This document shows, piece by piece, positions 6,794 to 63,644 of a stretch of 64,000 bases of DNA. The notes beneath the pieces were generated by a model. It searched no databases. It had not been told where the DNA came from and worked only from the letters and a program-made list of their open reading frames with translations. Made by a program: the position numbers and the translations under genes. The DNA is from an uncultured Lachnospiraceae bacterium (GTDB lineage Bacteria; Bacillota; Clostridia; Lachnospirales; Lachnospiraceae), in the NCBI GenBank assembly GCA_910588405.1, contig CAJUPT010000003.1:43765-107764 (forward strand), written 5' to 3'. Each line of letters begins with the position of its first letter. Position 1 is the stretch's first letter.

Positions 6794-7261
6794 TTACGTA
6801 TGTTTCAAATGGGATCTGCATATGCATGTACTGTTATCACCATGATCATCATCATACCATAATACATTAAAAACTCTTCCTATCATGTACCCATATAATC
6901 TGTGATTACCGGTTATTCTCAGTGATATCAATGACTCTGCTTCTATATATTTTGAAATCAATCTGTCTCGCGCTGTTTTGTTCAGTTCATCTAAATTTAA
7001 AGAATGATTCTGTTTTTTATCCCGAACTAATATTTCGCTCCATGTTTTGGCTTCCAATGCCTTTAATCTCGGAAGCACTTCCGTCCAAAACGACTCCCCC
7101 ATATGATCCTGAGAGAATGCCCACATCTCCTGATCAGAATTCACAAAAGCCCATGCAGGATATTCGCAATAATATCGCTCAGGATCTCCACCCTGAGCGA
7201 TATATCTTCCATTAGGAACTACTTTTTGTTTTACTTCTTTTTTTCGCTTAGAGCCCGCCAT
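6794..7261 (-). CDS. hypothetical protein; candidate toxin (PanT) partner of the upstream Panacea-domain antitoxin
   Basis: Its ATG overlaps the PanA stop by 14 nt (ATGGCGGGCTCTAA), indicating translational coupling. 155 aa, basic N-terminus. C-terminal RITGNHRLY resembles an Rx4H HEPN-like motif (weak). No recognisable family. Confidence 0.5.
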   Translation of the reverse strand: MAGSKRKKEVKQKVVPNGRYIAQGGDPERYYCEYPAWAFVNSDQEMWAFSQDHMGESFWTEVLPRLKALEAKTWSEILVRDKKQNHSLNLDELNKTARDRLISKYIEAESLISLRITGNHRLYGYMIGRVFNVLWYDDDHGDNSTCICRSHLKHT

Positions 7262-7679
7262 AGTATAATGCCATGCTTTCCTTTGTAATCACATGATTGC
7301 AACCTGCACCGGACGGAACTCCCTCTCTTGCCTTCAGCCAGGGGTCCTCCATATGTGTCAGTTGGCTGAGCCACTGGGCGTTGTGGCTGCCATAATGCTC
7401 TAATACCTTATCAATGGTATCTTTCTGATTATCAGACAAATCTCCTGCACCACCAGTTTCATCACTGGCGTTTACCGAATATTTACCCTGTGTTTTGAAG
7501 AAAAGTTCAGGACATACCGGACCATTCGCCCATGCCTGAAAGTCCTCCTCAAATAAAGGAGAATCGTCCCAAACAAGAGACCATGCCTGAGAATAATAGC
7601 ACAACTTCTGGAGTTTCATGGTTGACATAGAACCGGACTGTTCCAGAATATATTTTGCCGTATCCAAAACATTCGCCAT
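7248..7679 (-). CDS. Panacea (DUF4065) domain protein, PanA/GepA/SocA-like antitoxin
   Basis: Hallmark motif MKLQKLCYYSQAWSLVWDDSPLFEEDFQAWANGPV matches the DUF4065 signature (hLQKLLYYAQ.W.L....PLF.E.heAW..GPV). Confidence 0.8.
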   Translation of the reverse strand: MANVLDTAKYILEQSGSMSTMKLQKLCYYSQAWSLVWDDSPLFEEDFQAWANGPVCPELFFKTQGKYSVNASDETGGAGDLSDNQKDTIDKVLEHYGSHNAQWLSQLTHMEDPWLKAREGVPSGAGCNHVITKESMALYYGGL

Positions 7680-7717
7680 TTTTCATCCCCCTTTCACTTA
7701 TATAATATAACACGAAT

Positions 7718-8207
7718 TCAGTATCCTGAATAGTAGGAAAACCGCAAAATTTTCCAACCCGAAACGTTTTGAATGCTATCCTCCATATTCGAAGTTCTCA
7801 AGAAATGTGAAAAAGAGAACAACTGCATGTATCCACTCTTGACGTACCCTTTTTTCATCGCAATATCCGTACCCATATATTTTTTTATCCACACATACTT
7901 CCATCCATTTACACTACTATGCCTGTAATACTCAGGCATGAACCGCGCTCCCTTTCGAGCACTTTGCTTTTCCCACGCACGCCTCTTGCCATCAAAAGGC
8001 AGAGAGCACCACGGCAATCGCTACATAAACCGTCACCTCCGATTCTGCCAGGTCTTTCGTATCCGTCACGATGGCGGACATCCTGCTAACAAAACATTGC
8101 TTCCCAGCGATTTGCCTGATCTCATGAATTGCATCCATAGTCTTGTCCGCTGATGTGGTTGTGCCAAAAATAATAAACATCATGGTGGAATCTTCCGCGT
8201 TGAACAC
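7718..8207 (-). pseudogene. two short overlapping ORFs in different frames (7992..8207 and 7718..8017); possible frameshifted gene remnant
   Basis: 71-aa and 99-aa ORFs overlap by 26 nt with no RBS for the second. No recognisable family. AT-rich islet with the PanA/T pair. Confidence 0.25.
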
Positions 8208-8354
8208 ACTCCTGATCTCCTCCGGGAAGCATTTCCATCAAAATGCTTAGGCAAAACTGACTAACAGTCAATATATAAATTATTAAGTTTACATAAACTC
8301 ATCTTGACGAACAATTTTTTCGGGGGTAGTATAGAAATGGAAATTTTAAATCCA

Positions 8355-8462
8355 CCGGAAACAGCAACGCTCCGGACTACGGAATAGTAAGCGACTAAAG
8401 AACACCCGCTAACTATTCCGTATGCATCGCACGTAAGGGTCTAAAGACCAGACCCTTACGTG
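8355..8462 (+). promoter_or_regulatory. three consecutive hairpins upstream of the TetR gene (candidate leader RNA or operator cluster)
   Basis: ccgga-N11-tccgg (8355-8375); an 11-bp stem tacggaatagt/actattccgta (8378-8422); a 13-bp perfect stem cacgtaagggtct/agacccttacgtg (8430-8462). The last two loops share a CTAAAGA motif. Confidence 0.4.
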
Positions 8463-8567
8463 CTCATAGCAAAGCCCCGGGAGGACTTACTGACACTTCA
8501 GCGGCAGGAAATTCTCCCATACAAAGGGGCTTGGAAGGGGAGCTGCGGAACAGTAAATAAGGAAAAA

Positions 8568-9170
8568 ATGATGAAAAAAGTAGACATGAACAAAAAACAA
8601 AAGCGAGAATCCTTGCTTGATTCTGCCTTTTCCCTTTTTATGAACAATGGTTTCCATAAAACCTCCATCTCGAATATCGTGGAGGCCGCTGGTGTGGCAA
8701 AAGGCACCTTCTATCTTTATTTCAAGGACAAATACGATATCCGAAACCATCTGATCTCCCACAAGGCCAGCCTGGTGTTCCAGAACGCCTACCGCAGCCT
8801 CCTTGACAGCGGCGTGAAGGAATTTGAGGATCAGGTCATCTTTTTTATTGACCATATCCTGAACCAGTTTTCCGACGACCACCAGCTGGTCAGGCTTTTG
8901 TCAAAGCATTTAAGCTGGGGCATGTTTAAAAATTTTCTTACCGAGGCGGAGATTGCGGATTCGGAAAATATTCTGAATATCTTTCGGGGGCTTCTGTCCA
9001 ATGCGCCTTATTCCTACCGTAATCCGGAGGTGATGATCTATATGATCGTGGAGCTTGTAAGCGGCACCAGCTACAATTCCATCCTGTACGGGCAGCCTTT
9101 GCCTTTGGAACAGCTCAAGCCTTATATTTACGACTCCGTGCGAAGCATCATGAAAAATGAGCGGGTTTAA
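8568..9170 (+). CDS. TetR/AcrR family transcriptional regulator
   Basis: HTH region SISNIVEAAGVAKGTFYLYFKDKYD is a classic TetR N-terminal motif. Start moved to ATG 8568, which has an AAGGA RBS; the tracked ORF begins inside the upstream hairpin. Confidence 0.85.
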   Translation: MMKKVDMNKKQKRESLLDSAFSLFMNNGFHKTSISNIVEAAGVAKGTFYLYFKDKYDIRNHLISHKASLVFQNAYRSLLDSGVKEFEDQVIFFIDHILNQFSDDHQLVRLLSKHLSWGMFKNFLTEAEIADSENILNIFRGLLSNAPYSYRNPEVMIYMIVELVSGTSYNSILYGQPLPLEQLKPYIYDSVRSIMKNERV

Positions 9171-15995: not shown

Positions 15996-16519
15996 CAGCC
16001 TGTCCGCAATTGTTTTTCCGGCAGCTCAATATCTGGTTTTTTACGCATTACTCAGCACTCCTTTTTTATAATGGTACTGAATTTCCGCGCGTTTTAACAG
16101 TTATATAAACAGATGAGTTAACCATCATAAAACAACATGTAAGCAGATAAAATATAACTAAATGTGTCACTGAGAAGCATACCCTCACACTAGTGTACTG
16201 TCTGGCTTATATTCAGGCAAACCTCCTTGTCTATTTTCCTGATAGCACTGCTCCACAAGCCTCAGCGTAGCCACCGCTACGCCTACGTTTGTGAAACAGC
16301 ACTCTCAGAAAAATATTCTGCGGAGTTTTACCAGATATGAACCAGACAGTACACTAGTCGACAAATATCTATATATATAGGAAGTAAGCCTGTTAGGGCG
16401 AGAAAGTGGCCTGGGCCATATTTTTAAAAATGTTCTAAAGGATTGGAATATCTTCACTAATTGAACTCGAACTGAAATAACACAAAAGCAAAAATTTTGC
16501 GATCTGTAATCAGAGAAAA

Positions 16520-16855
16520 GTGGAGCAGGCGGGAATCGGACCCGCGTCCAGAAAACCATTCATTGTACTTCTACTATCATAGCTGTTTGTTTTACATTCC
16601 CTCCGGCGGGCGGCAAACAGCAGCCTTCCGCTTTCAGTAGCTTCATCTTACGCCCATATGCGCAAAGCTTAGCATATGTCGTTTCTCACATAATCGATGC
16701 CAGGTTCCCGACCTGTGAGTGCGCCGGGGCTGACAGCTGCTTTAGGCAGCGTATGCTAAATTATCTTCAGCGTTTATATTTATTGGTGTCATTTAACGCA
16801 TAACTGCGGATAGCTTCTCCAACTTCAAATCCCCTGTCGAAACCAGTACTGCCCC
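16520..16855 (-). ncRNA. ssrA: tmRNA (SsrA)
   Basis: Minus-strand 5' end GGGGCAGUACUGGUUUCGACAGGGG. The 3' tRNA-like end ...GGACGCGGGUCCGAUUCCCGCCUGCUCCAC is present as its reverse complement at 16521-16547. Internal tag reading frame ...GCT GAA GAT AAT TTA GCA TAC GCT GCC TAA gives AEDNLAYAA*. Lies immediately downstream of smpB. Confidence 0.9.
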
Positions 16856-43480: not shown

Positions 43481-43966
43481 ATGAAGTTGATTACCACAGA
43501 CTATGGTGATATTCAATATGAAAAAGAAGATTTGATTCTGTTTTCAGATGGATTGTTTGGCTTTACTGACCTGACAGAATATCTTTTGATCTGTCTTAAT
43601 GATGAGGATAATTCTCTGTTGATCCTCCAATCCACACAAAGGCCCGAGATATCCTTTGCGGTAATTAATCCTGTACTCCTGTGTCCGGATTATTCTCCTG
43701 TCCTTACTCCTGAGGAACTGTTTTCTATGGGAGTTAAGGACAGCGAGGATTTATCCTATTATGCAATCTGCATTGTTAAAAAAGATTTACAAGACAGTAT
43801 GGTGAATCTGAAATGTCCTCTGGCTATCAATCCCCAGACACTGAAGGGAATGCAGGTTATTTTGGAGGGTTCATATTATCAGTTCCGTCACCGAATAGGC
43901 GATCTTCTCCAGGATTCCGAAAACACTGAAAGCGGGAGTGAGACAAATGCTGATATTGAGACGTAA
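43481..43966 (+). CDS. fliW: flagellar assembly factor FliW
   Basis: FliW family pattern (LILFSDGLFGF, EYLLICLNDEDNSLLILQS, AINPQTLKG) and position before csrA. Confidence 0.85.
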   Translation: MKLITTDYGDIQYEKEDLILFSDGLFGFTDLTEYLLICLNDEDNSLLILQSTQRPEISFAVINPVLLCPDYSPVLTPEELFSMGVKDSEDLSYYAICIVKKDLQDSMVNLKCPLAINPQTLKGMQVILEGSYYQFRHRIGDLLQDSENTESGSETNADIET

Positions 43967-52958: not shown

Positions 52959-53444
52959 CTACAAATACCGCTCCGGCTTCCCCACTGCTCTGATCATAAC
53001 GCTGCCGGTGGCCACGTCCAGAAACATGGTTCTCGCGCAGGTTCCGCCTGTATCCTCCGCCGCAATCCGCAGGCCCTCTTCCCTTAACACCTGCTTGACC
53101 ACCATTATATTGCGCTGCCCAATATTGCCGAAATCCGCTTTTCCGCTGATCTCAAACATTTTCGCTCCGCCGGCAATCTTCACTACGGTTCTTGACTTCA
53201 TCATGCCAAAAGCCGTCAGTTTCCTCAATGTCTCGTGAATACCTGCGTCCGCATACTTAAAAGGATTCATATCTCCGCCCGCACCCTTGTTGGGCAGCAT
53301 AACATGAAGCAACGCGCCCAGATGAATCATCGGATCATAAAATGTAACGCCGATACACGACCCAAGCGCATATGTAACGACCCGACCCTCATTTCTGGTA
53401 AATTTCATATCGCCAATTCCAACTTTAAGATCCTTATCAAACAT
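52959..53444 (-). CDS. cheD: chemoreceptor glutamine deamidase CheD
   Basis: CheD signature (ALGSCIGVTFYD...GALLHVMLP). 161 aa. Confidence 0.9.
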   Translation of the reverse strand: MFDKDLKVGIGDMKFTRNEGRVVTYALGSCIGVTFYDPMIHLGALLHVMLPNKGAGGDMNPFKYADAGIHETLRKLTAFGMMKSRTVVKIAGGAKMFEISGKADFGNIGQRNIMVVKQVLREEGLRIAAEDTGGTCARTMFLDVATGSVMIRAVGKPERYL

Positions 53445-53446
53445 CG

Positions 53447-54067
53447 TTATGAAACCCCTAATTTGTTTAAAATTCTATTTAAAGATGCAATGTCAGCCAG
53501 CATCAGCAGCCAGTCGTTCATCTTCTCCCCTTCAATGAGGAAATCCGCGTCAAAATACATCAGCTGGTCCGTGTCATTTCCGCATTCGGTCATAGGAACG
53601 GTCAGAATGCCGCCTAACATATTGATGGTAAAGCTGGGCACGGAAAGCTGGATATCCATTCCCGCCAGCTGTGAAAAAGCATTGATGTAAGAACAGATAA
53701 TAATATTCCCCACTTCCGTCAGGGCCGATGCGCCCAGCTCATCCATCTCCTCTAAACCATCAAAGGTCTTTCCCATAAATTTCTCCAGGATTCTGTTGGC
53801 AAAACGCAGGTTAAAGAGGAACAGCATCAGGCCGTCCACATCACCGTCCATTTTCACCAGCGTCGCGGCCACAATTTCCTCCGGGTCTCCGGTCTGATCA
53901 AGCGCCGTCTGATAATTCAGGACGCTGACCCGGGGGATCGTAATGCGGACCTCTTTCTGAAGCATTTTGGAAAGAGAGGTGGCCGCATGGCTGGTGCCTA
54001 TGCTGCCGATCTCCTTCATGATATCCAGTTCCTGAAGATTCATATCGCTATATTTTACTATCGCCAC
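53447..54067 (-). CDS. cheC: CheY-P phosphatase CheC
   Basis: CheC family pattern (DIMKEIGSIGTSHAATSLSKML...LTEVGNIIICSYINAF). 206 aa. Confidence 0.85.
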   Translation of the reverse strand: MAIVKYSDMNLQELDIMKEIGSIGTSHAATSLSKMLQKEVRITIPRVSVLNYQTALDQTGDPEEIVAATLVKMDGDVDGLMLFLFNLRFANRILEKFMGKTFDGLEEMDELGASALTEVGNIIICSYINAFSQLAGMDIQLSVPSFTINMLGGILTVPMTECGNDTDQLMYFDADFLIEGEKMNDWLLMLADIASLNRILNKLGVS

Positions 54068-54120
54068 CTTTGCTGTCCCTCCTAAATATCGTTCCGCTTC
54101 GTCTCTTACTTCTCTCTACT

Positions 54121-54876
54121 CTATCCTCTCAGCGAATTTACGGTCTGCACTGTCTCGTCAGACGTTTCGACCATTTTCAACGCGTAAGAAAACGCTCTCT
54201 GGGTCTCGATCATCTTGACATATTCGTCAGCCACATTCACACCGGAGCCTTCCAAATAACCGGTTTCCAGATAAGGATTTTCCACCGGGATCGGCTCTAC
54301 ACCCTCGTCAGAGGGAACATATTCGTTGTCGCCGATGCTCAAAAGACGGCTGGGCAAATTAAAGGTGACGATGCCTGGCTGCGCCTGAACTCGCTCATCC
54401 CCTTCCGCAGCCGCTTCCCCATCTTCCCCGATTTGAGGCATAATCAGCTCAATCGGCTGCTCATTTTCATCCAGCACCAGCTTTCCATTCTGGGTGGTCA
54501 GATAGAACACGCCGTCGATCTCACCACGATGAAAATCACCGTCTCTGGTGTAGGTAATCTCGCCGGTGGCCACATCCTGCACCATGAAGAAAGTATTTCG
54601 ATCACCCAGAGCATAATTCAGCTTATTTCTTGTCTCCTGAAATGCAGAAGCCTCAAAAGGGGTGTAAGTACGCTGTACCCGCATACCTGCGCCCGCCTGC
54701 AACTCTGTCACCGCCTCGATATCGTCATTCAAATTATAATTGATCAGTTCAGAAAATACCGCCGTTTTCGGCTTATACCCGGTATTATTCACATTCGCCA
54801 GGTTATTGGAAACTACGTCCAATTTGTTCAGACAATTATCAGCCCCGATTGAACCGACATAAAATGACATCTCCAT
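54121..54876 (-). CDS. flgG: flagellar basal-body rod protein FlgG/FlgF family
   Basis: N-terminal rod motif LDVVSNNLANVNNTGYK and C-terminal GYLEGSGVNVADEYVKMIETQRAFSY. Confidence 0.85.
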   Translation of the reverse strand: MEMSFYVGSIGADNCLNKLDVVSNNLANVNNTGYKPKTAVFSELINYNLNDDIEAVTELQAGAGMRVQRTYTPFEASAFQETRNKLNYALGDRNTFFMVQDVATGEITYTRDGDFHRGEIDGVFYLTTQNGKLVLDENEQPIELIMPQIGEDGEAAAEGDERVQAQPGIVTFNLPSRLLSIGDNEYVPSDEGVEPIPVENPYLETGYLEGSGVNVADEYVKMIETQRAFSYALKMVETSDETVQTVNSLRG

Positions 54877-54895
54877 AAAATTTTACCTCCAAATC

Positions 54896-55108
54896 TAGTT
54901 CCGCTGCGCCCCTGCCTGCACACCTGGTTCCGGATGAATTTCCGGCCATGTTCCATGTCCGTAAATCCATCCATGCACAGTCCGGGGCTACGCTGATTTC
55001 AGTTCCGCTGCGCCCCTGCCTGCACACCTGGTTCCGGATGAATTTCCGGCCATGTTCCATGTCCGTAAATCCATCCGTGTACAGTCCGGGGCTACGCTGA
55101 TTTCAATA
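54896..55108 (-). repeat. two tandem copies (~107 nt each) of a GGA-rich leader element in the flgF-flgG intergenic region
   Basis: 54896-55002 and 55001-55105 are near-identical. Each contains the ccggatgaatttccgg hairpin. The element abuts the flgG RBS (tagatttggaggtaaaattttATG). Confidence 0.85.
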
Positions 55109-55115
55109 CCCCTGC

Positions 55116-55880
55116 CTACAGCCGTCCTATATCTGTCGATGCCTTTCCCAGCATCTGGTCATACATCTTCAGTACCTGAGCGGCACTTTGGAGCGCTCTT
55201 TGGGAGGACATCATGGCGGTCATTTCTTCTACCATGTTGACATTTGATTTTTCGATCACCTTCCAGAGGATGCCGGTCTCTCCGCCGCCGATTTCATCCA
55301 TCGCCTCGATCTGCGCCTGGTTTGTGGAGAACAGACCATTGTCTTCCTTATGCAGCTGATCGTAATCGGCAAAATCCACTACCTTCAGGGTTCCGAAAAC
55401 ATCTCCGTCCAGTCGGAAGGTTCCGCCGTCAGCGCTGAAATTTTCACTGGTAACCTGAATCGGCTGATTGTCCTCAGAGAGAACCTGGCCTAGCTCGTTC
55501 AGAATCAGATATCCGTCCTCGTCTACGGAGAAGGAACCGTTCCTCGTGTATCGCTCGCCTTCAGGGGTACGGATGCAGAAAAATCCGTTTCCACTCAAGG
55601 CGAAATCATAGATACTGTCTGTCTCCCGCAAAGACCCTTGGGTATAATCCACATAGGTCTGCTGGGCCGATACAATTTTTGCGCTGGTAGCCAGCTCTGT
55701 GGGATTTCCCTTGCTCACCGTACCCGTACGGATTAGCATTTCCTCGTCAAAGGTCCGTGCTAACATCGTATCTGACTTATAACCGGGAGTCTGAATGTTC
55801 ACCATATTATTACTGATGGTATTCAGATCACGGTTCTGGGTCAGCATACCGGAAACCAGATTATAAAAACCCTGATACAT
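55116..55880 (-). CDS. flgF: flagellar basal-body rod protein FlgF/FlgG family
   Basis: N-terminal LVSGMLTQNRDLNTISNNMVNIQTPGYK and C-terminal KSNVNMVEEMTAMMSSQRALQSAAQ rod-protein domain. Confidence 0.85.
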   Translation of the reverse strand: MYQGFYNLVSGMLTQNRDLNTISNNMVNIQTPGYKSDTMLARTFDEEMLIRTGTVSKGNPTELATSAKIVSAQQTYVDYTQGSLRETDSIYDFALSGNGFFCIRTPEGERYTRNGSFSVDEDGYLILNELGQVLSEDNQPIQVTSENFSADGGTFRLDGDVFGTLKVVDFADYDQLHKEDNGLFSTNQAQIEAMDEIGGGETGILWKVIEKSNVNMVEEMTAMMSSQRALQSAAQVLKMYDQMLGKASTDIGRL

Positions 55881-55884
55881 ATAC

Positions 55885-55992
55885 TACCTCCAATTTAGTT
55901 CCGCTTCGCCCCCTACCAGCACACTTTACCCAAGATTAATTTCCAGCCACGTTCCGCGTCTGTAAATCAATCTGTGCGCTGTCCGGGGGCTA
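55885..55992 (-). repeat. third, diverged copy (~75% identity) of the ~107-nt element, between fliA and flgF
   Basis: tagttccgcttcgccccctaccagcacac...gtccgggggctacgctgttctag aligns to the tandem copies along its whole length. A partial fourth start (tagttccgctgtc) follows. Confidence 0.7.
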
Positions 55993-56032
55993 CGCTGTTC
56001 TAGTTCCGCTGTCTTTTAGTTCCGTCTTATCT

Positions 56033-56806
56033 CTAATCCAGCTGTTCCTTCACCGATTTTCTCAGCTTCTGAATCGCTGTCTTGTGCATCTGTGACACTC
56101 TGGAATCGCTTACCTGCAATACCTGAGAGATCTGGTGCATCGTGAGTCCCTCCACATAATAAAGGGATATCACCGTCCTTAAATTCTCTCCCAGCTGGTT
56201 CACCGCTTCCTCCAAAATCTCGATTACTTCATTCTGTATATAGCTTTCCTCTGGCTGTGTACTGGAATCCTCGCTGGCAATCTGTAAAACCAGGTCCTCC
56301 TTCCCGTCCTCCACGGGACTATCGAGAGAAACTGCCTCGTACATCTTCACCCGCTGCAACAGCGTCCTGCACCGCTTCAGGTTCATCTGCATGAATTCTG
56401 CCAACTCTTCATCCGTGGGCGGCCTCCCGCGTTCCTTCGTCAGGTGGCGTATCGCCTCGTCCATAGTTTTTTTTCGCTTGTGGTAGGTCCGGGGCATCAT
56501 GTCCTTTTCCCTTACCAGATCGAAAATCATTCCTCTGATCCGCCGGGAGATAAATGTGGAAAACTTGATCCCCTTATCCGGATCAAACCGGTCGATGCCC
56601 TTCATAATCGCAATCGCACCCTCGTTTACCACATCATCTACCTGCATAAAGTGGGAATACAGCTTATTCATTTCTATGGCGATAGATTTGGCCAGATACA
56701 GATAGCGGAGAGTCAACTCCTGTTTGATCTCAAGTTCCTTCTCCTTCTGATACAGTGCAAAAAGCTCCTCGTCCGTCAACTCCTTTAACTTATCGCGTAG
56801 CTCCAT
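56033..56806 (-). CDS. fliA: flagellar sigma factor sigma-28 (FliA/SigD)
   Basis: Region 2 (FSTFISRRIRGMIFDLVRE) and region 4 HTH (LTMHQISQVLQVSDSRVSQMHKTAIQKLR). Confidence 0.9.
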   Translation of the reverse strand: MELRDKLKELTDEELFALYQKEKELEIKQELTLRYLYLAKSIAIEMNKLYSHFMQVDDVVNEGAIAIMKGIDRFDPDKGIKFSTFISRRIRGMIFDLVREKDMMPRTYHKRKKTMDEAIRHLTKERGRPPTDEELAEFMQMNLKRCRTLLQRVKMYEAVSLDSPVEDGKEDLVLQIASEDSSTQPEESYIQNEVIEILEEAVNQLGENLRTVISLYYVEGLTMHQISQVLQVSDSRVSQMHKTAIQKLRKSVKEQLD

Positions 56807-61900: not shown

Positions 61901-62268
61901 TAGTGTTTCTCTCCTTTTTTCTTTTCCCTGAGCGTTCCGTAGGCTTTTAACAGCTCCTGAAAGCCAGGTGCTTGGCTGCCTCCGGCCGGGACGTCCTCTG
62001 GCTCCCAGACAAAATCCTCAGGCTCCGACAGCAGCTGCACCCCTGCCGGACTGACACCTAAAAGATAGGTATGCTCCTGAAGCCTCACCAGAAGCAGATA
62101 TCGATCCGCCCCTACCTGAACCCGGTCGATGATCTTCAAGTATGTTCCGGATACGCTGCCTCCGTAGCGCTTGCCTAGGTATCGGCTGCACCAATAGGCC
62201 AGAACCAGAATGACAATGACCCACATCAGCGCGCCAATCAGGGATATGATAGGATCTCCACTCCCCAT
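61900..62268 (-). CDS. fliO: flagellar biosynthesis protein FliO/FliZ
   Basis: 122 aa with one N-terminal TM segment. Located directly upstream of fliP, with which it overlaps by 1 nt. Confidence 0.65.
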   Translation of the reverse strand: MGSGDPIISLIGALMWVIVILVLAYWCSRYLGKRYGGSVSGTYLKIIDRVQVGADRYLLLVRLQEHTYLLGVSPAGVQLLSEPEDFVWEPEDVPAGGSQAPGFQELLKAYGTLREKKKGEKH

Positions 62269-63644
62269 TACAGAGTCTCCGGATTTAGATTTCTGGTTAT
62301 AATCTCAGTGATACGGATACCAAAGTTATCCTCAACTACTACTACGTCTCCTCTGGCAATACACTGACCGTTTACATACAGATCGGCCTGCTCTCCCGCC
62401 ATTTTATCCAAAACCACCAGAGAGCCCTGGGTAAATTCCAGAATATCTCCCACCAGTTTTTTCGCTCTTCCGATCTCCACAGATACCTCTAACGGCACCT
62501 TCAGAAGCATTTCCTGATTCACATGATCTTCGCCGTCTCCCCCTTCTCCTTCACCATCAAAGGAAGCAGAATCCAGCGGACGGATGATCGAAGGCTCTGC
62601 AGGCGCTTCTCGCTTCGCTGTGCCGCCCTTCTTCATCTCGTTGATCATTTCCATCATCTGCATTTGAGACTGCTGCATCTGGGTAATCAGCTGAAGCATC
62701 ATCGGGTCCTGCGCCGACTGCTGGTATACAGGCATCATCTGAGGCATCGGCTGCATCTGAGGCGCTGCCTGCATTTGCGGTGCCGCCATCTGAGGCACAG
62801 GTGCGGGCTCCGGTGTCGGCGCTGCTTCTGCCGCTCCGCCTCCCATCAATGCTTCGATCTCTGCCTGAGACAGCGTTCCGCCTCCTGCTGATGCCGCAGG
62901 CTCCGGTGTCGGCGCTGCTTCCGCTGCTCCGCCTCCCATCAATGCTTCGATCTCTGCCTGAGACAGCGTTCCGCCTCCTGCTGATGCTGCTTCCGCAGCC
63001 GGTGCGGCAGCCTCGGGCTCCGGCGCTGCCTTTGGCGCTTCGTTGGCAAACCCTGCCTGGAAAGGCTTCAGAAGCCGTTTCGCCAGGTCCTCTGACATAA
63101 TATTCAAAAATTCGCTTTTCAGCTTTCCCTCCACTTCCAGATCAAAGCTTACTACCACTTTGCTTCCGTCCGTGGTCACAAAATATTTCTCTCTAAATTC
63201 CTCTTCGCTGGCCACCTCAAAGGCCTTCGGCGTAGAGATATTTACCGTCATTCCAAGGAACTCCGACAGAGCCGTAGCGGAAGAACCCATCATCTGGTTC
63301 ATCACCTCACAGATTGCACTGCGGTTGATCTCATCCAGCTCAAAAGTTTCCTCCGGAATCTCCATGCCCATCAGCATTCCTACGATAATACGCACATCGT
63401 TGCGGCTGAACATCATGACATTGCTGCCATCCAGCCCTTCCACATAGGCAATCTCCACCGCAACGGCAGGCTCCAGCCTCCTGAAATCAAAATCCTGATC
63501 TCTCAGTATTCTGACTACGGGAGTGGTGATATGCACGGTGTTCCCCAGCAGCGTGGATACTGCCGTGGCAGACGCGCCAAGGCTGATATTCATTATTTCG
63601 CCTATCGCGTCGATTTCCATTTCATTAAAGGTGCAAGCGCCCAT
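62268..63644 (-). CDS. fliY: flagellar motor switch phosphatase FliY (CheC-like domains + FliN/SpoA C-terminal domain) with internal 31-aa tandem duplication
   Basis: Two CheC-like repeats (EIDAIGEIMNISLGASATAVSTLLG and EINRSAICEVMNQMMGSSATALSEFLG). C-terminal FliN domain (LLKVPLEVSVEIGRAKKLVGDILEFTQGSLVVLDK). GAAGGAG RBS 8 nt upstream. Confidence 0.85.
   Translation of the reverse strand: MGACTFNEMEIDAIGEIMNISLGASATAVSTLLGNTVHITTPVVRILRDQDFDFRRLEPAVAVEIAYVEGLDGSNVMMFSRNDVRIIVGMLMGMEIPEETFELDEINRSAICEVMNQMMGSSATALSEFLGMTVNISTPKAFEVASEEEFREKYFVTTDGSKVVVSFDLEVEGKLKSEFLNIMSEDLAKRLLKPFQAGFANEAPKAAPEPEAAAPAAEAASAGGGTLSQAEIEALMGGGAAEAAPTPEPAASAGGGTLSQAEIEALMGGGAAEAAPTPEPAPVPQMAAPQMQAAPQMQPMPQMMPVYQQSAQDPMMLQLITQMQQSQMQMMEMINEMKKGGTAKREAPAEPSIIRPLDSASFDGEGEGGDGEDHVNQEMLLKVPLEVSVEIGRAKKLVGDILEFTQGSLVVLDKMAGEQADLYVNGQCIARGDVVVVEDNFGIRITEIITRNLNPETL

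Follow-up and report, generated by a model that had tools for sequence, protein, structure and literature searches.

Sense-oriented hairpin repeats lie against ribosome-binding sites in operons of gut Lachnospiraceae, among them a flagellar rod-gene operon

Most of what is known about small interspersed repeats comes from proteobacteria, pneumococci, neisseriae and mycobacteria, and it has long been debated whether the host gains anything from them. One such family, MIRU, was reportedly described by Supply and colleagues in 1997 as consisting of short direct repeats, often in tandem, that occupy operon spacers in one orientation and vary in copy number between strains. MIRUs insert at gene starts within operons, all in one orientation, and spare downstream expression (PMC12548453 for insertion at start codons). 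The BOX elements of Streptococcus pneumoniae are co-transcribed with neighboring operons (PMC3049150), and the ERIC/IRU and Correia/NEMIS elements are likewise co-transcribed and have been proposed or shown to alter mRNA stability through RNase E or RNase III (PMC2229807, PMC3049150). REP sequences, hairpins of 20–40 bp tagged with GTAG and cut there by the RAYT transposase (PMC3733652), offer a possible model of dispersal (PMC3733652, PMC3337134). The present analysis concerns a hairpin repeat of ~104 nucleotides (nt) that precedes two flagellar rod genes, flgF and flgG, in a 64,000-nt stretch of DNA (hereafter the window: positions 43,765 to 107,764 of contig CAJUPT010000003.1, assembly GCA_910588405.1) from an uncultured Lachnospiraceae bacterium. 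The flagellar copies very probably belong, with nothing to set them apart, to an interspersed repeat that is restricted to some gut Lachnospiraceae, varies in copy number and would be transcribed along with its operons; they are probably not an element of flagellar control. Literature searches returned no description of this hairpin-repeat family, which apparently has gone undescribed to date.

MIRU is the closest known family in placement; the units described here are also direct, often tandem, intercistronic and held in one orientation relative to the genes. MIRU nonetheless carries a short open reading frame (ORF) that overlaps the stop and start codons of its neighbors and so couples its translation to that of the next gene, whereas the units have no conserved ORF, contain a covarying ~85-nt hairpin and end at the Shine-Dalgarno (SD) sequence, not at the start codon; the two families share no sequence similarity and belong to different phyla. 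A coding role for the units was rejected, their length (102–109 nt) not being a multiple of three and the ATG of the window copies falling within a variable apical loop. In structure and modularity the nearest relatives are BOX, ERIC and Correia, yet these are not locked in orientation. The units resemble BOX in being modular and lineage-restricted, with variable tandem modules, a stable structure and nesting with other repeats (PMC3049150), but show no sequence similarity to it, and pneumococcal repeats are over-represented between convergent genes (PMC3049150) whereas the units are found only in sense and against the ribosome-binding site (RBS). With ERIC/IRU and Correia/NEMIS they share the form of a long stem-loop of ~100–150 nt; ERIC and Correia elements, however, have terminal inverted repeats and TA duplications and occur in both orientations, in contrast to the constant flanks, single orientation, head-to-tail arrays and solo tails of the units. 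The likeness to REPs and BIMEs lies in a strand-asymmetric hairpin maintained by compensatory change, with a brief stretch of conserved sequence where the stem begins. REPs, however, are 20–40 bp long, carry GTAG/CGTC tags and often form inverted pairs, whereas the units are at least about twice as long, carry GTAG inconsistently and occur in direct tandems only.

Three complete units occupy the flagellar locus of the window, all on the minus strand. Unit A (54889..54992), the flgG-proximal full unit, comprises the hairpin and its AGCGGAACUAGAUUU tail and scored 101 bits (E 2e-26) with the covariance model R1; unit B (54993..55099; 125 bits) is a tandem copy upstream of A, 98% identical to it across a 104-nt period, and the two lie head to tail in the 239-nt flgF–flgG spacer. 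Unit C (55889..55997; 108 bits) is the single unit in the 152-nt spacer between a sigma (fliA-like) gene and flgF. With scores of 101–125 bits and E values from 1e-26 to 1e-33, the flagellar units stand far beyond chance. Their predicted folds are more stable than those of shuffled sequences, at −45.5 kcal/mol (z −3.5) for A, −47.5 kcal/mol (z −4.7) for B and −52 kcal/mol (z −5.9) for C, the last with compensatory changes relative to A and B. At both junctions the tail touches the SD sequence: unit A reaches the flgG GGAGG (54886–54890) and ends 12 nt from the flgG ATG (54876), and unit C reaches the flgF GGAGG (55887–55891) and ends 8 nt from the flgF ATG (55880). A repeat finder placed the same copies in a register differing from that of the covariance model (54897–55000 and 55001–55104, 98% identical with a 104-nt period, and 55898–56001). 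An earlier reading of the window from its letters alone (the sequence-only reading) had reported two tandem copies before flgG and one before flgF, and both the repeat search and the model located them there; its estimate of ~75% identity for the third copy compares with a measured 76% between A and C (83/109, gaps counted). When A and B are folded together (54870–55120, minus strand), the minimum free energy structure is one very large nested hairpin (−99 kcal/mol), in which B contributes the 5′ arm and A the 3′ arm. Its competitor, a separate hairpin for each unit, totals about −93 kcal/mol, and tandem copies could thus fold alternatively.

The family extends well beyond flagella. A pattern for the apical hairpin, applied to one JGI metagenome, recovered the flagellar locus of another strain and two further contigs with tandem units, which in the first separate an M29 peptidase gene from purE and in the second leuC from leuD. 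Model R1, built from eight units, then found a fourth copy in the window, on the opposite strand in the leader of a TetR-family gene. In a collection of species-representative genomes, the first pattern, with the apical part as in the window, gave no match, while a looser pattern of three sequence blocks matched 29 stretches; the model confirmed 37 sense-strand copies (50–110 bits) in 24 of these, from nine Lachnospiraceae genomes, and none of the five pattern matches in other phyla. Many of the carrier genomes derive from a mouse-gut catalogue, and one belongs to a cultured isolate, bacterium 1xD8-48. The three-block pattern had no match among viral contigs, giving no sign of phage origin, and a blastn search of plasmid sequences with the tandem pair found nothing. 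Counts of units per array are lower bounds, some degenerate units falling below the E-value cut-off of the model; such units were seen trailing a scored unit (for example, ...CAGCAGACAGGCGUAGGCGCACGGAACGAUUUACGGACG... at L056 1085–1190, and at L041 ~500–600; L numbers denote fetched loci).

The genes downstream of the units number at least 25 and are functionally unrelated, spanning glycolysis, amino-acid and nucleotide synthesis, translation, proteolysis, motility and regulators. They include genes for triosephosphate isomerase (tpiA), pgk, OMP decarboxylase, an M18 aminopeptidase, an aldose epimerase, rubrerythrin, a BMC shell protein, 4-alpha-glucanotransferase (MalQ), RF3 (prfC), ProA, ClpC, PheT and CvfB, with no gene family or pathway common to them. 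The family is neither a regulon nor flagellar. This result bears on the first proposal of the sequence-only reading, a leader bound by CsrA or another regulator that controls rod-gene translation through GGA motifs. A leader of that kind would expose GGA motifs in hairpin loops, shared by homologous leaders, with one of two sites overlapping the SD sequence; in Firmicutes the CsrA regulon is that of flagellin. The window copies do precede flgF and flgG and do hold the four GGA motifs counted in that reading, and in nearly all copies of the family the tail core GCGGAAC lies 12–15 nt upstream of AGGAGG, so that the conserved tail GGA faces the GGA that the SD sequences always contain, a spacing that a CsrA dimer could bridge. 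The overlap between the tail and the CsrA consensus is nevertheless limited to GGA, the GGAs of the apical loop and bulge are not conserved in the family, and the local ccgg/ccgg hairpin said to present one of them is not the fold that covariation supports. At least 25 genes outside the flagellar system also have the element in front of them, and their lack of functional relation argues against a flagellar regulon; relatives with 91–92% identical FlgF carry the same flagellar operon with no hairpins at these sites, and a regular-expression screen for CsrA-like ORFs, itself a weak test, found none in the window. Flagellar control by CsrA or a similar regulator is accordingly very unlikely.

Each unit, ~104 nt long (range 102–109), begins with CAGCG, continues as an ~85-nt imperfect hairpin and closes with an invariant single-stranded tail, AGCGGAACU-nn-AAU. 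Ascending the stem from 5′ to 3′, CAGCG-R-A-R leads into a basal helix of 5 bp, above which come a small internal loop, a helix of 7–8 bp and a 9-bp helix ending in GAUU; the upper stem is made of two short G+C helices, with a pair of conserved A·G mismatches between them, and is capped by an apical loop whose sequence and length differ across the family. The 3′ arm carries an 8–9-nt bulge, AGAnnCAGG, and the terminal tail reads G-Y-AGCGGAACU-nn-AAU. The four helical segments, with 31 modeled pairs, thus make up an extended imperfect duplex with an asymmetric bulge on its 3′ side, situated between cistrons.

The fold is supported by covariation. RNAalifold identified compensatory double changes at 15 of the 31 pairs in a MAFFT alignment built without the model, and among the 35–36 distinct copies from other genomes double changes were present at 22 of the 31, with pairing retained in 97% of cells compared with 79% after shuffling and 30–47% with slid partners. 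Unit C differs from A and B by several paired swaps, in which GCCCC/GGGGC becomes GCCCCC/GGGGGC, CUG/CAG becomes CAG/CUG and GGAUGGAUU/AAUUCAUCC becomes AGAUUGAUU/AAUUAAUCU. G·U cells outnumber A·C cells by 60 to 12, 32 of 36 copies retain one particular G·U pair, and matches of the model to the reverse strand reach only 15–25 bits; the fold therefore belongs to the sense strand. The strand specificity noted in the sequence-only reading holds in the window as well, where reverse-strand matches score merely 15–24 bits. About ten copies were detected by the model alone, and in these the three blocks of the search pattern are intact or one to two bases off, while the tail core GCGGAAC is intact in all.

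So strongly conserved a structure might be expected of an independent small-RNA gene family, a riboswitch or a repeat RNA resembling the type III antitoxins, which also form tandem repeat arrays (PMC3401426). A scan for sigma-70 promoters and terminators turned up nothing resembling either on the flagellar units' sense strand, and on this result a promoter-carrying or attenuator role was dropped. Rfam models gave no gathering-score match in the window other than tmRNA (16518–16855, minus strand; RF00023, 128.7 bits) and nothing relevant at E ≤ 10 over 54700–56200 and 8200–8700. The units are, moreover, embedded between co-oriented cistrons in variable copy number, and neither a common downstream gene family nor a toxin gene accompanies them. 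The small RNA family that the sequence-only reading had also entertained is not supported by these results, and independent RNA genes, riboswitches and antitoxin-like RNAs together have only the slightest probability.

Placement is as regular as structure. Grouped by site, the copies make up 33 arrays with one, two or three head-to-tail units each, and in scans that covered both strands all 33 were co-oriented with the next ORF. About 28 of the 33 end 7–27 nt (model end) before a start codon with the last tail directly against AGGAGG; three apparent exceptions to SD contact are followed by more degenerate units or tails, leaving two true ones (L047 and L054). An ORF on the same strand ends shortly upstream of 26 of the 33, most often within 8–35 nt, and in three cases the stop codon TAG of the upstream gene lies within the first tail or partial unit. 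SD contact also holds in long spacers that offered room for the units elsewhere: in L051, where a terminator lies upstream, in L032/L033, where a TTGACA-17-TATATT promoter does, and in the leader of the TetR gene. The GC skew has one sign throughout the window, yet the TetR copy lies on the plus strand and the flagellar copies on the minus strand, so that orientation follows the gene and not the replication fork; an orientation set by the direction of replication was rejected for the window on these grounds. The sequence-only reading had named randomly distributed copies in both orientations outside flagellar loci as the mark of a generic mobile repeat; the contexts are indeed non-flagellar, but the orientation is not random. 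The flanks present identical conserved CAGCG and AGCGGAACU motifs at every site with no variable target-site duplication, and this constancy rules out ordinary target duplication. Contact with the SD sequence is so strict as to suggest that the units are targeted there or arrive by recombination involving the tail and the SD sequence.

Several of these features recall an element of the REP/RAYT type, or one derived from IS200/IS605, in which a single-stranded DNA hairpin is recognized by a tyrosine (HUH) transposase that cuts at a short motif beside the stem. Compensatory change maintains the hairpin, which is specific to one strand; the same AGCG motif occurs on both of its flanks, and hairpin-less sites read CAGCG|GAACU. 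The window copies alone carry a GTAG at their stem's 5′ foot, and many others have one in the 3′ flank, CUGUAGCGG, which would suit such an enzyme, yet its position is inconstant, many copies lack it and several subfamilies have it at neither place. The ~85-nt hairpin also exceeds the 20–40 bp of REPs (PMC3733652), no inverted pairs like REPINs or BIMEs were seen, only direct tandems, and orientation tracks the gene, not replication. No Y1 transposase gene was seen, though no search was aimed at one. An origin of this type is therefore judged improbable.

Comparison with relatives shows that hairpins are present or absent at the same junctions. FlgF homologues place the organism among uncultured Lachnospiraceae, and same-species contigs (FlgF 99% identical) hold the same copies, save one low-coverage contig with a single unit before flgG. 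In the relatives with FlgF identities of 91–92%, the sigma–flgF gap is 50–53 nt and the flgF–flgG gap 72 nt, and in place of hairpins short motifs such as GGCGGAACUAAAAUCAGCGGAACUAAAUUAGGAGG remain; one of these relatives has the 3′ half of a unit before cheC. A third relative, L046 (from the metagenome-assembled genome CAJTTU01), holds a unit before flgF and only remnants at the other two junctions, and relatives at 66–67% FlgF identity have empty spacers of 12–25 nt. From this pattern of presence and absence, the hairpins are lineage-specific additions that come and go at flagellar junctions. At locus L020 (FlgF 82% identical), an unrelated-looking 135-nt spacer before flgF (778–912) keeps the tail-like motifs CGGAAACUGUAAAC, and GAAGCGAAAACUGUGAAU followed by CGAGGAGG, and may represent the family in a decayed or more ancient state.

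At the head of most arrays stands a partial unit composed of the 3′ strand of the basal helix and the tail (for example, GGACUGUAGCGGAACU), and the hairpin-less junctions of relatives retain exactly such solo pieces, as expected from recombination between direct repeats that flank the hairpin. The window contains several. One (55100..55115, minus strand), immediately after the flgF stop codon TAG (55116–55118), consists of the basal-helix 3′ strand and a degenerate tail, GCAGGGGUAUUGAAAU; at the aligned position strain L027 reads GCAGGGGCGUAGCGGAACUGAAAU, with the tail intact. Two hairpin-less tails, GACGGAACUAAAAG and ACAGCGGAACUAGAA, lie at 55998..56026 (minus strand) between the stop of the sigma gene (56033) and unit C, one of them corresponding to the partial restart, tagttccgctgtc, that the sequence-only reading had correctly picked out; both also occur in the hairpin-less relatives L009 and L019. 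A solo remnant, GAGACGAAGCGGAACGAUAUU (54085..54105, minus strand), stands before the SD sequence and GTG start (54067) of cheC, with the basal-helix 3′ strand and tail and no hairpin; the model matches this site weakly (54082–54152, 14.6 bits), and L009 is the relative with the 3′-half unit there.

Unit number varies at orthologous sites, with two units facing one at L032/L033 and at L036/L040, both from short-read assemblies in which collapse is possible. Neighboring units within an array are nearly identical whereas those of different loci diverge by 30–37%, and the subfamilies defined by paired changes are mostly genome-specific, though several can coexist in one genome. Several short-read contigs from other samples end or start in or beside arrays (L005–L007 end 15–98 nt after flgF, and L061–L064 start 128–399 nt before the TetR gene), as expected if the repeats break assemblies.

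The fourth window copy is a composite (8362..8558, plus strand) in the leader of the TetR-family gene (ATG 8568; TetR_N domain), matched by the model at 8456–8560 (44 bits, E 4e-10). The start of the unit (8362–8377) is separated from its remainder, which ends in GCGGAACAGUAAAU and then AAGGA, by a nested insert of ~94 nt with two hairpins (8378–8471) that splits the unit in its lower internal loop. Both loops of the insert read approximately AAAGAAC, and insert and basal helix together are predicted to form a three-way junction (−84 kcal/mol, z −7.7). Among the fetched loci, a further copy of the insert occurs only in L045 (4836–4925), as part of the same composite, which in this second species stands before proA; the first insert hairpin differs between the two by a compensatory change. 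The two loci are not orthologous, and the recurrence indicates that composite versions have been copied to unrelated sites. In other samples, the TetR protein gene showed equal spacing wherever the upstream gene was present, and no presence/absence polymorphism was seen. The ~700 nt upstream of the TetR leader (7680–8360) contain only short ORFs, the longest of 99 amino acids, and may be decayed genes; a gene with a SocA_Panacea domain (7248–7679, minus strand) adjoins them.

Of the possibilities raised in the sequence-only reading, a miniature repeat element came closest, although the units are not specific colonizers of flagellar regions and do not behave as a both-orientation element. A classical miniature inverted-repeat transposable element would be a non-autonomous insertion sequence derivative with terminal inverted repeats and a target-site duplication, inserting at random and surviving where harmless. 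The ~100-nt stem-loop form is that of Correia, ERIC and RUP (PMC2229807), the family is lineage-restricted with presence/absence differences, and one repeat is nested in another as in pneumococcal repeats (PMC3049150). The constant flanking motifs and missing variable duplication do not fit this model, head-to-tail arrays and solo tails are atypical of it, and an exclusively sense orientation with SD contact even in long leaders is not readily given by random insertion followed by filtering. Nor do we know of any parent insertion sequence for the units, a further point against a classical element of this kind, whose likelihood is correspondingly small.

Patterns of divergence yield a less uniform picture. 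Between the window and L046, identity is 96.7% across the sigma–flgF spacer, compared with 61–75% at four-fold degenerate sites in the genes on either side; the coding DNA adjoining this spacer is also unusually similar. In two other orthologous pairs, change proceeds at about the synonymous rate and the fold is retained. Taken together, these sequence comparisons support constraint on the structure, and constraint on the sequence is inconsistent across pairs. The alignment of window positions 53400–56700 with L046 1–3200 is a mosaic, the sigma gene and cheC being mostly 84–100% identical per 50-nt window and flgF and flgG mostly 74–86%, which suggests recombination or very different constraint inside one operon.

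Strong conservation leads one to ask if these units are functional modules selected by the host, not passengers: a form of operon punctuation in which a trans-acting factor, either an RNA-binding protein or an RNase, would read the AGCGGAACU tail and the internal loops and set the stability or translation of the downstream cistron. Such a role would account for a tail that is invariant or nearly so in every copy, including those detected by the model alone, for the conservation of the A·G mismatches and 3′ bulge, and for the SD placement that persists in long leaders. It would also fit the conserved fliA–flgF spacer (96.7% against the 61–75% of synonymous sites) and a structure kept despite ~30–37% divergence between copies. 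Close relatives, however, have or lack the hairpins at the same junctions with nothing else visibly changed, the number of units varies, two of the three orthologous comparisons are near-neutral, the host genes have no common function, and no candidate factor was identified. Punctuation by a dedicated factor is thus on the unlikely side, if considerably less so than the origins weighed above.

More can be proposed about what the units may do in mRNA. Thermodynamic prediction of the openness of positions −18 to +6 in 25 arrays gave the same result for the native hairpin as for the tail and RBS alone, and a slightly lower value when the hairpin was shuffled (0.595 versus 0.55, p = 0.003). Because the predicted openness is equal with and without it, the hairpin would appear to insulate the RBS, not to occlude it, and sequestration of the SD sequence by the hairpin was rejected on this basis. 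The units, presumably co-transcribed with their operons, would each fold autonomously in the mRNA, and the resulting hairpin, although very stable, would keep the RBS accessible. The hairpin might then serve as an intercistronic barrier to exonucleases or, as the target of a double-strand-specific RNase, as a processing site. RNase III signals of the T7 R1.1 type are repeated intercistronic hairpins with an asymmetric internal loop, in sense orientation and just upstream of the next RBS. The units share this layout, although the likeness is a working analogy only: cleavage is demonstrated for the T7 sites, which are few copies in one phage genome, whereas the units are dispersed over bacterial chromosomes in variable copy number. 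A role as decay barrier or processing site is favored because a 31-pair bulged duplex between cistrons resembles ERIC, Correia, BOX and the T7 RNase III sites; by analogy with these it is a serious possibility, somewhat short of even, and roughly the same likelihood attaches to a passenger that the host tolerates and that does little. As to dynamics, arrays may grow and shrink by recombination between direct repeats, giving rise to solo tails, and new sites would be seeded by some copy mechanism able to carry composite variants to unrelated loci.

Several considerations weigh against reading the flagellar copies as ordinary members of a co-transcribed interspersed repeat. We infer both co-transcription and any effect at the RNA level. 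No transposase, no terminal inverted repeat with variable target duplication and no other mobility signature was found, and a simple selfish-insertion model does not explain the strict SD contact. The conservation of the spacer between the window and L046 points to constraint at the level of the host, away from neutrality. The difference between two units and one within the window's own species (L001 versus L004) could be an assembly collapse, as the L004 contig has 3x coverage. Most copies, finally, came by way of the three-block pattern, which demands the blocks GAUUUAC, GGAAAUU and AGCGGRAC and so partly imposes their conservation, and antisense copies and copy number are known only for the fetched loci.

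The genes around the flagellar units all lie on the minus strand and comprise flhB, flhA, the FliA-like sigma gene, the flgF-like and flgG-like genes, cheC, cheD and a gene for a CheW-response-regulator protein. The sigma-70-family (FliA/SigD-like) gene upstream of unit C occupies 56033..56806; the flgF-like rod gene (55116..55880) encodes 254 amino acids with Flg_bb_rod, LlgE_F_G_D1 and Flg_bbr_C domains; and the flgG-like rod gene (54121..54876), downstream of units B and A, encodes 251. A gene for a FliY-like switch protein with CheC and FliN C-terminal domains (62268–63644, minus strand) contains a tandem coding duplication of ~93 nt near 62881 and 62974, each copy of which encodes GGTLSQAEIEALMGGG. 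This peptide resembles the CheY-binding peptide of FliM/FliY, and the protein may hold two such peptides.

The family belongs to gut Lachnospiraceae, which are abundant but little studied, and joins features that usually occur separately, namely a strongly covarying RNA-type hairpin, an invariant single-stranded tail, an exclusively sense orientation and contact with the RBS in many core operons, such as those of glycolysis, amino-acid synthesis, translation factors and flagella. On the practical side, the units appear to break short-read assemblies, inflate operon spacers and can mimic gene-specific regulatory leaders. Since they abut the RBS, any effect on mRNA processing or translation is directly testable, and the carrier bacterium 1xD8-48 is a cultured isolate. 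A bolder proposal, to which only a minor share of probability can be given, is that the units form a new class of element docking at the 5′ edge of the SD sequence, whether as an RBS-targeted mobile module or as host punctuation of operons with a factor that reads the AGCGGAACU tail. If this were true, what becomes of the downstream cistron would be adjusted through the number of units, and this in dozens of housekeeping operons of gut Lachnospiraceae.

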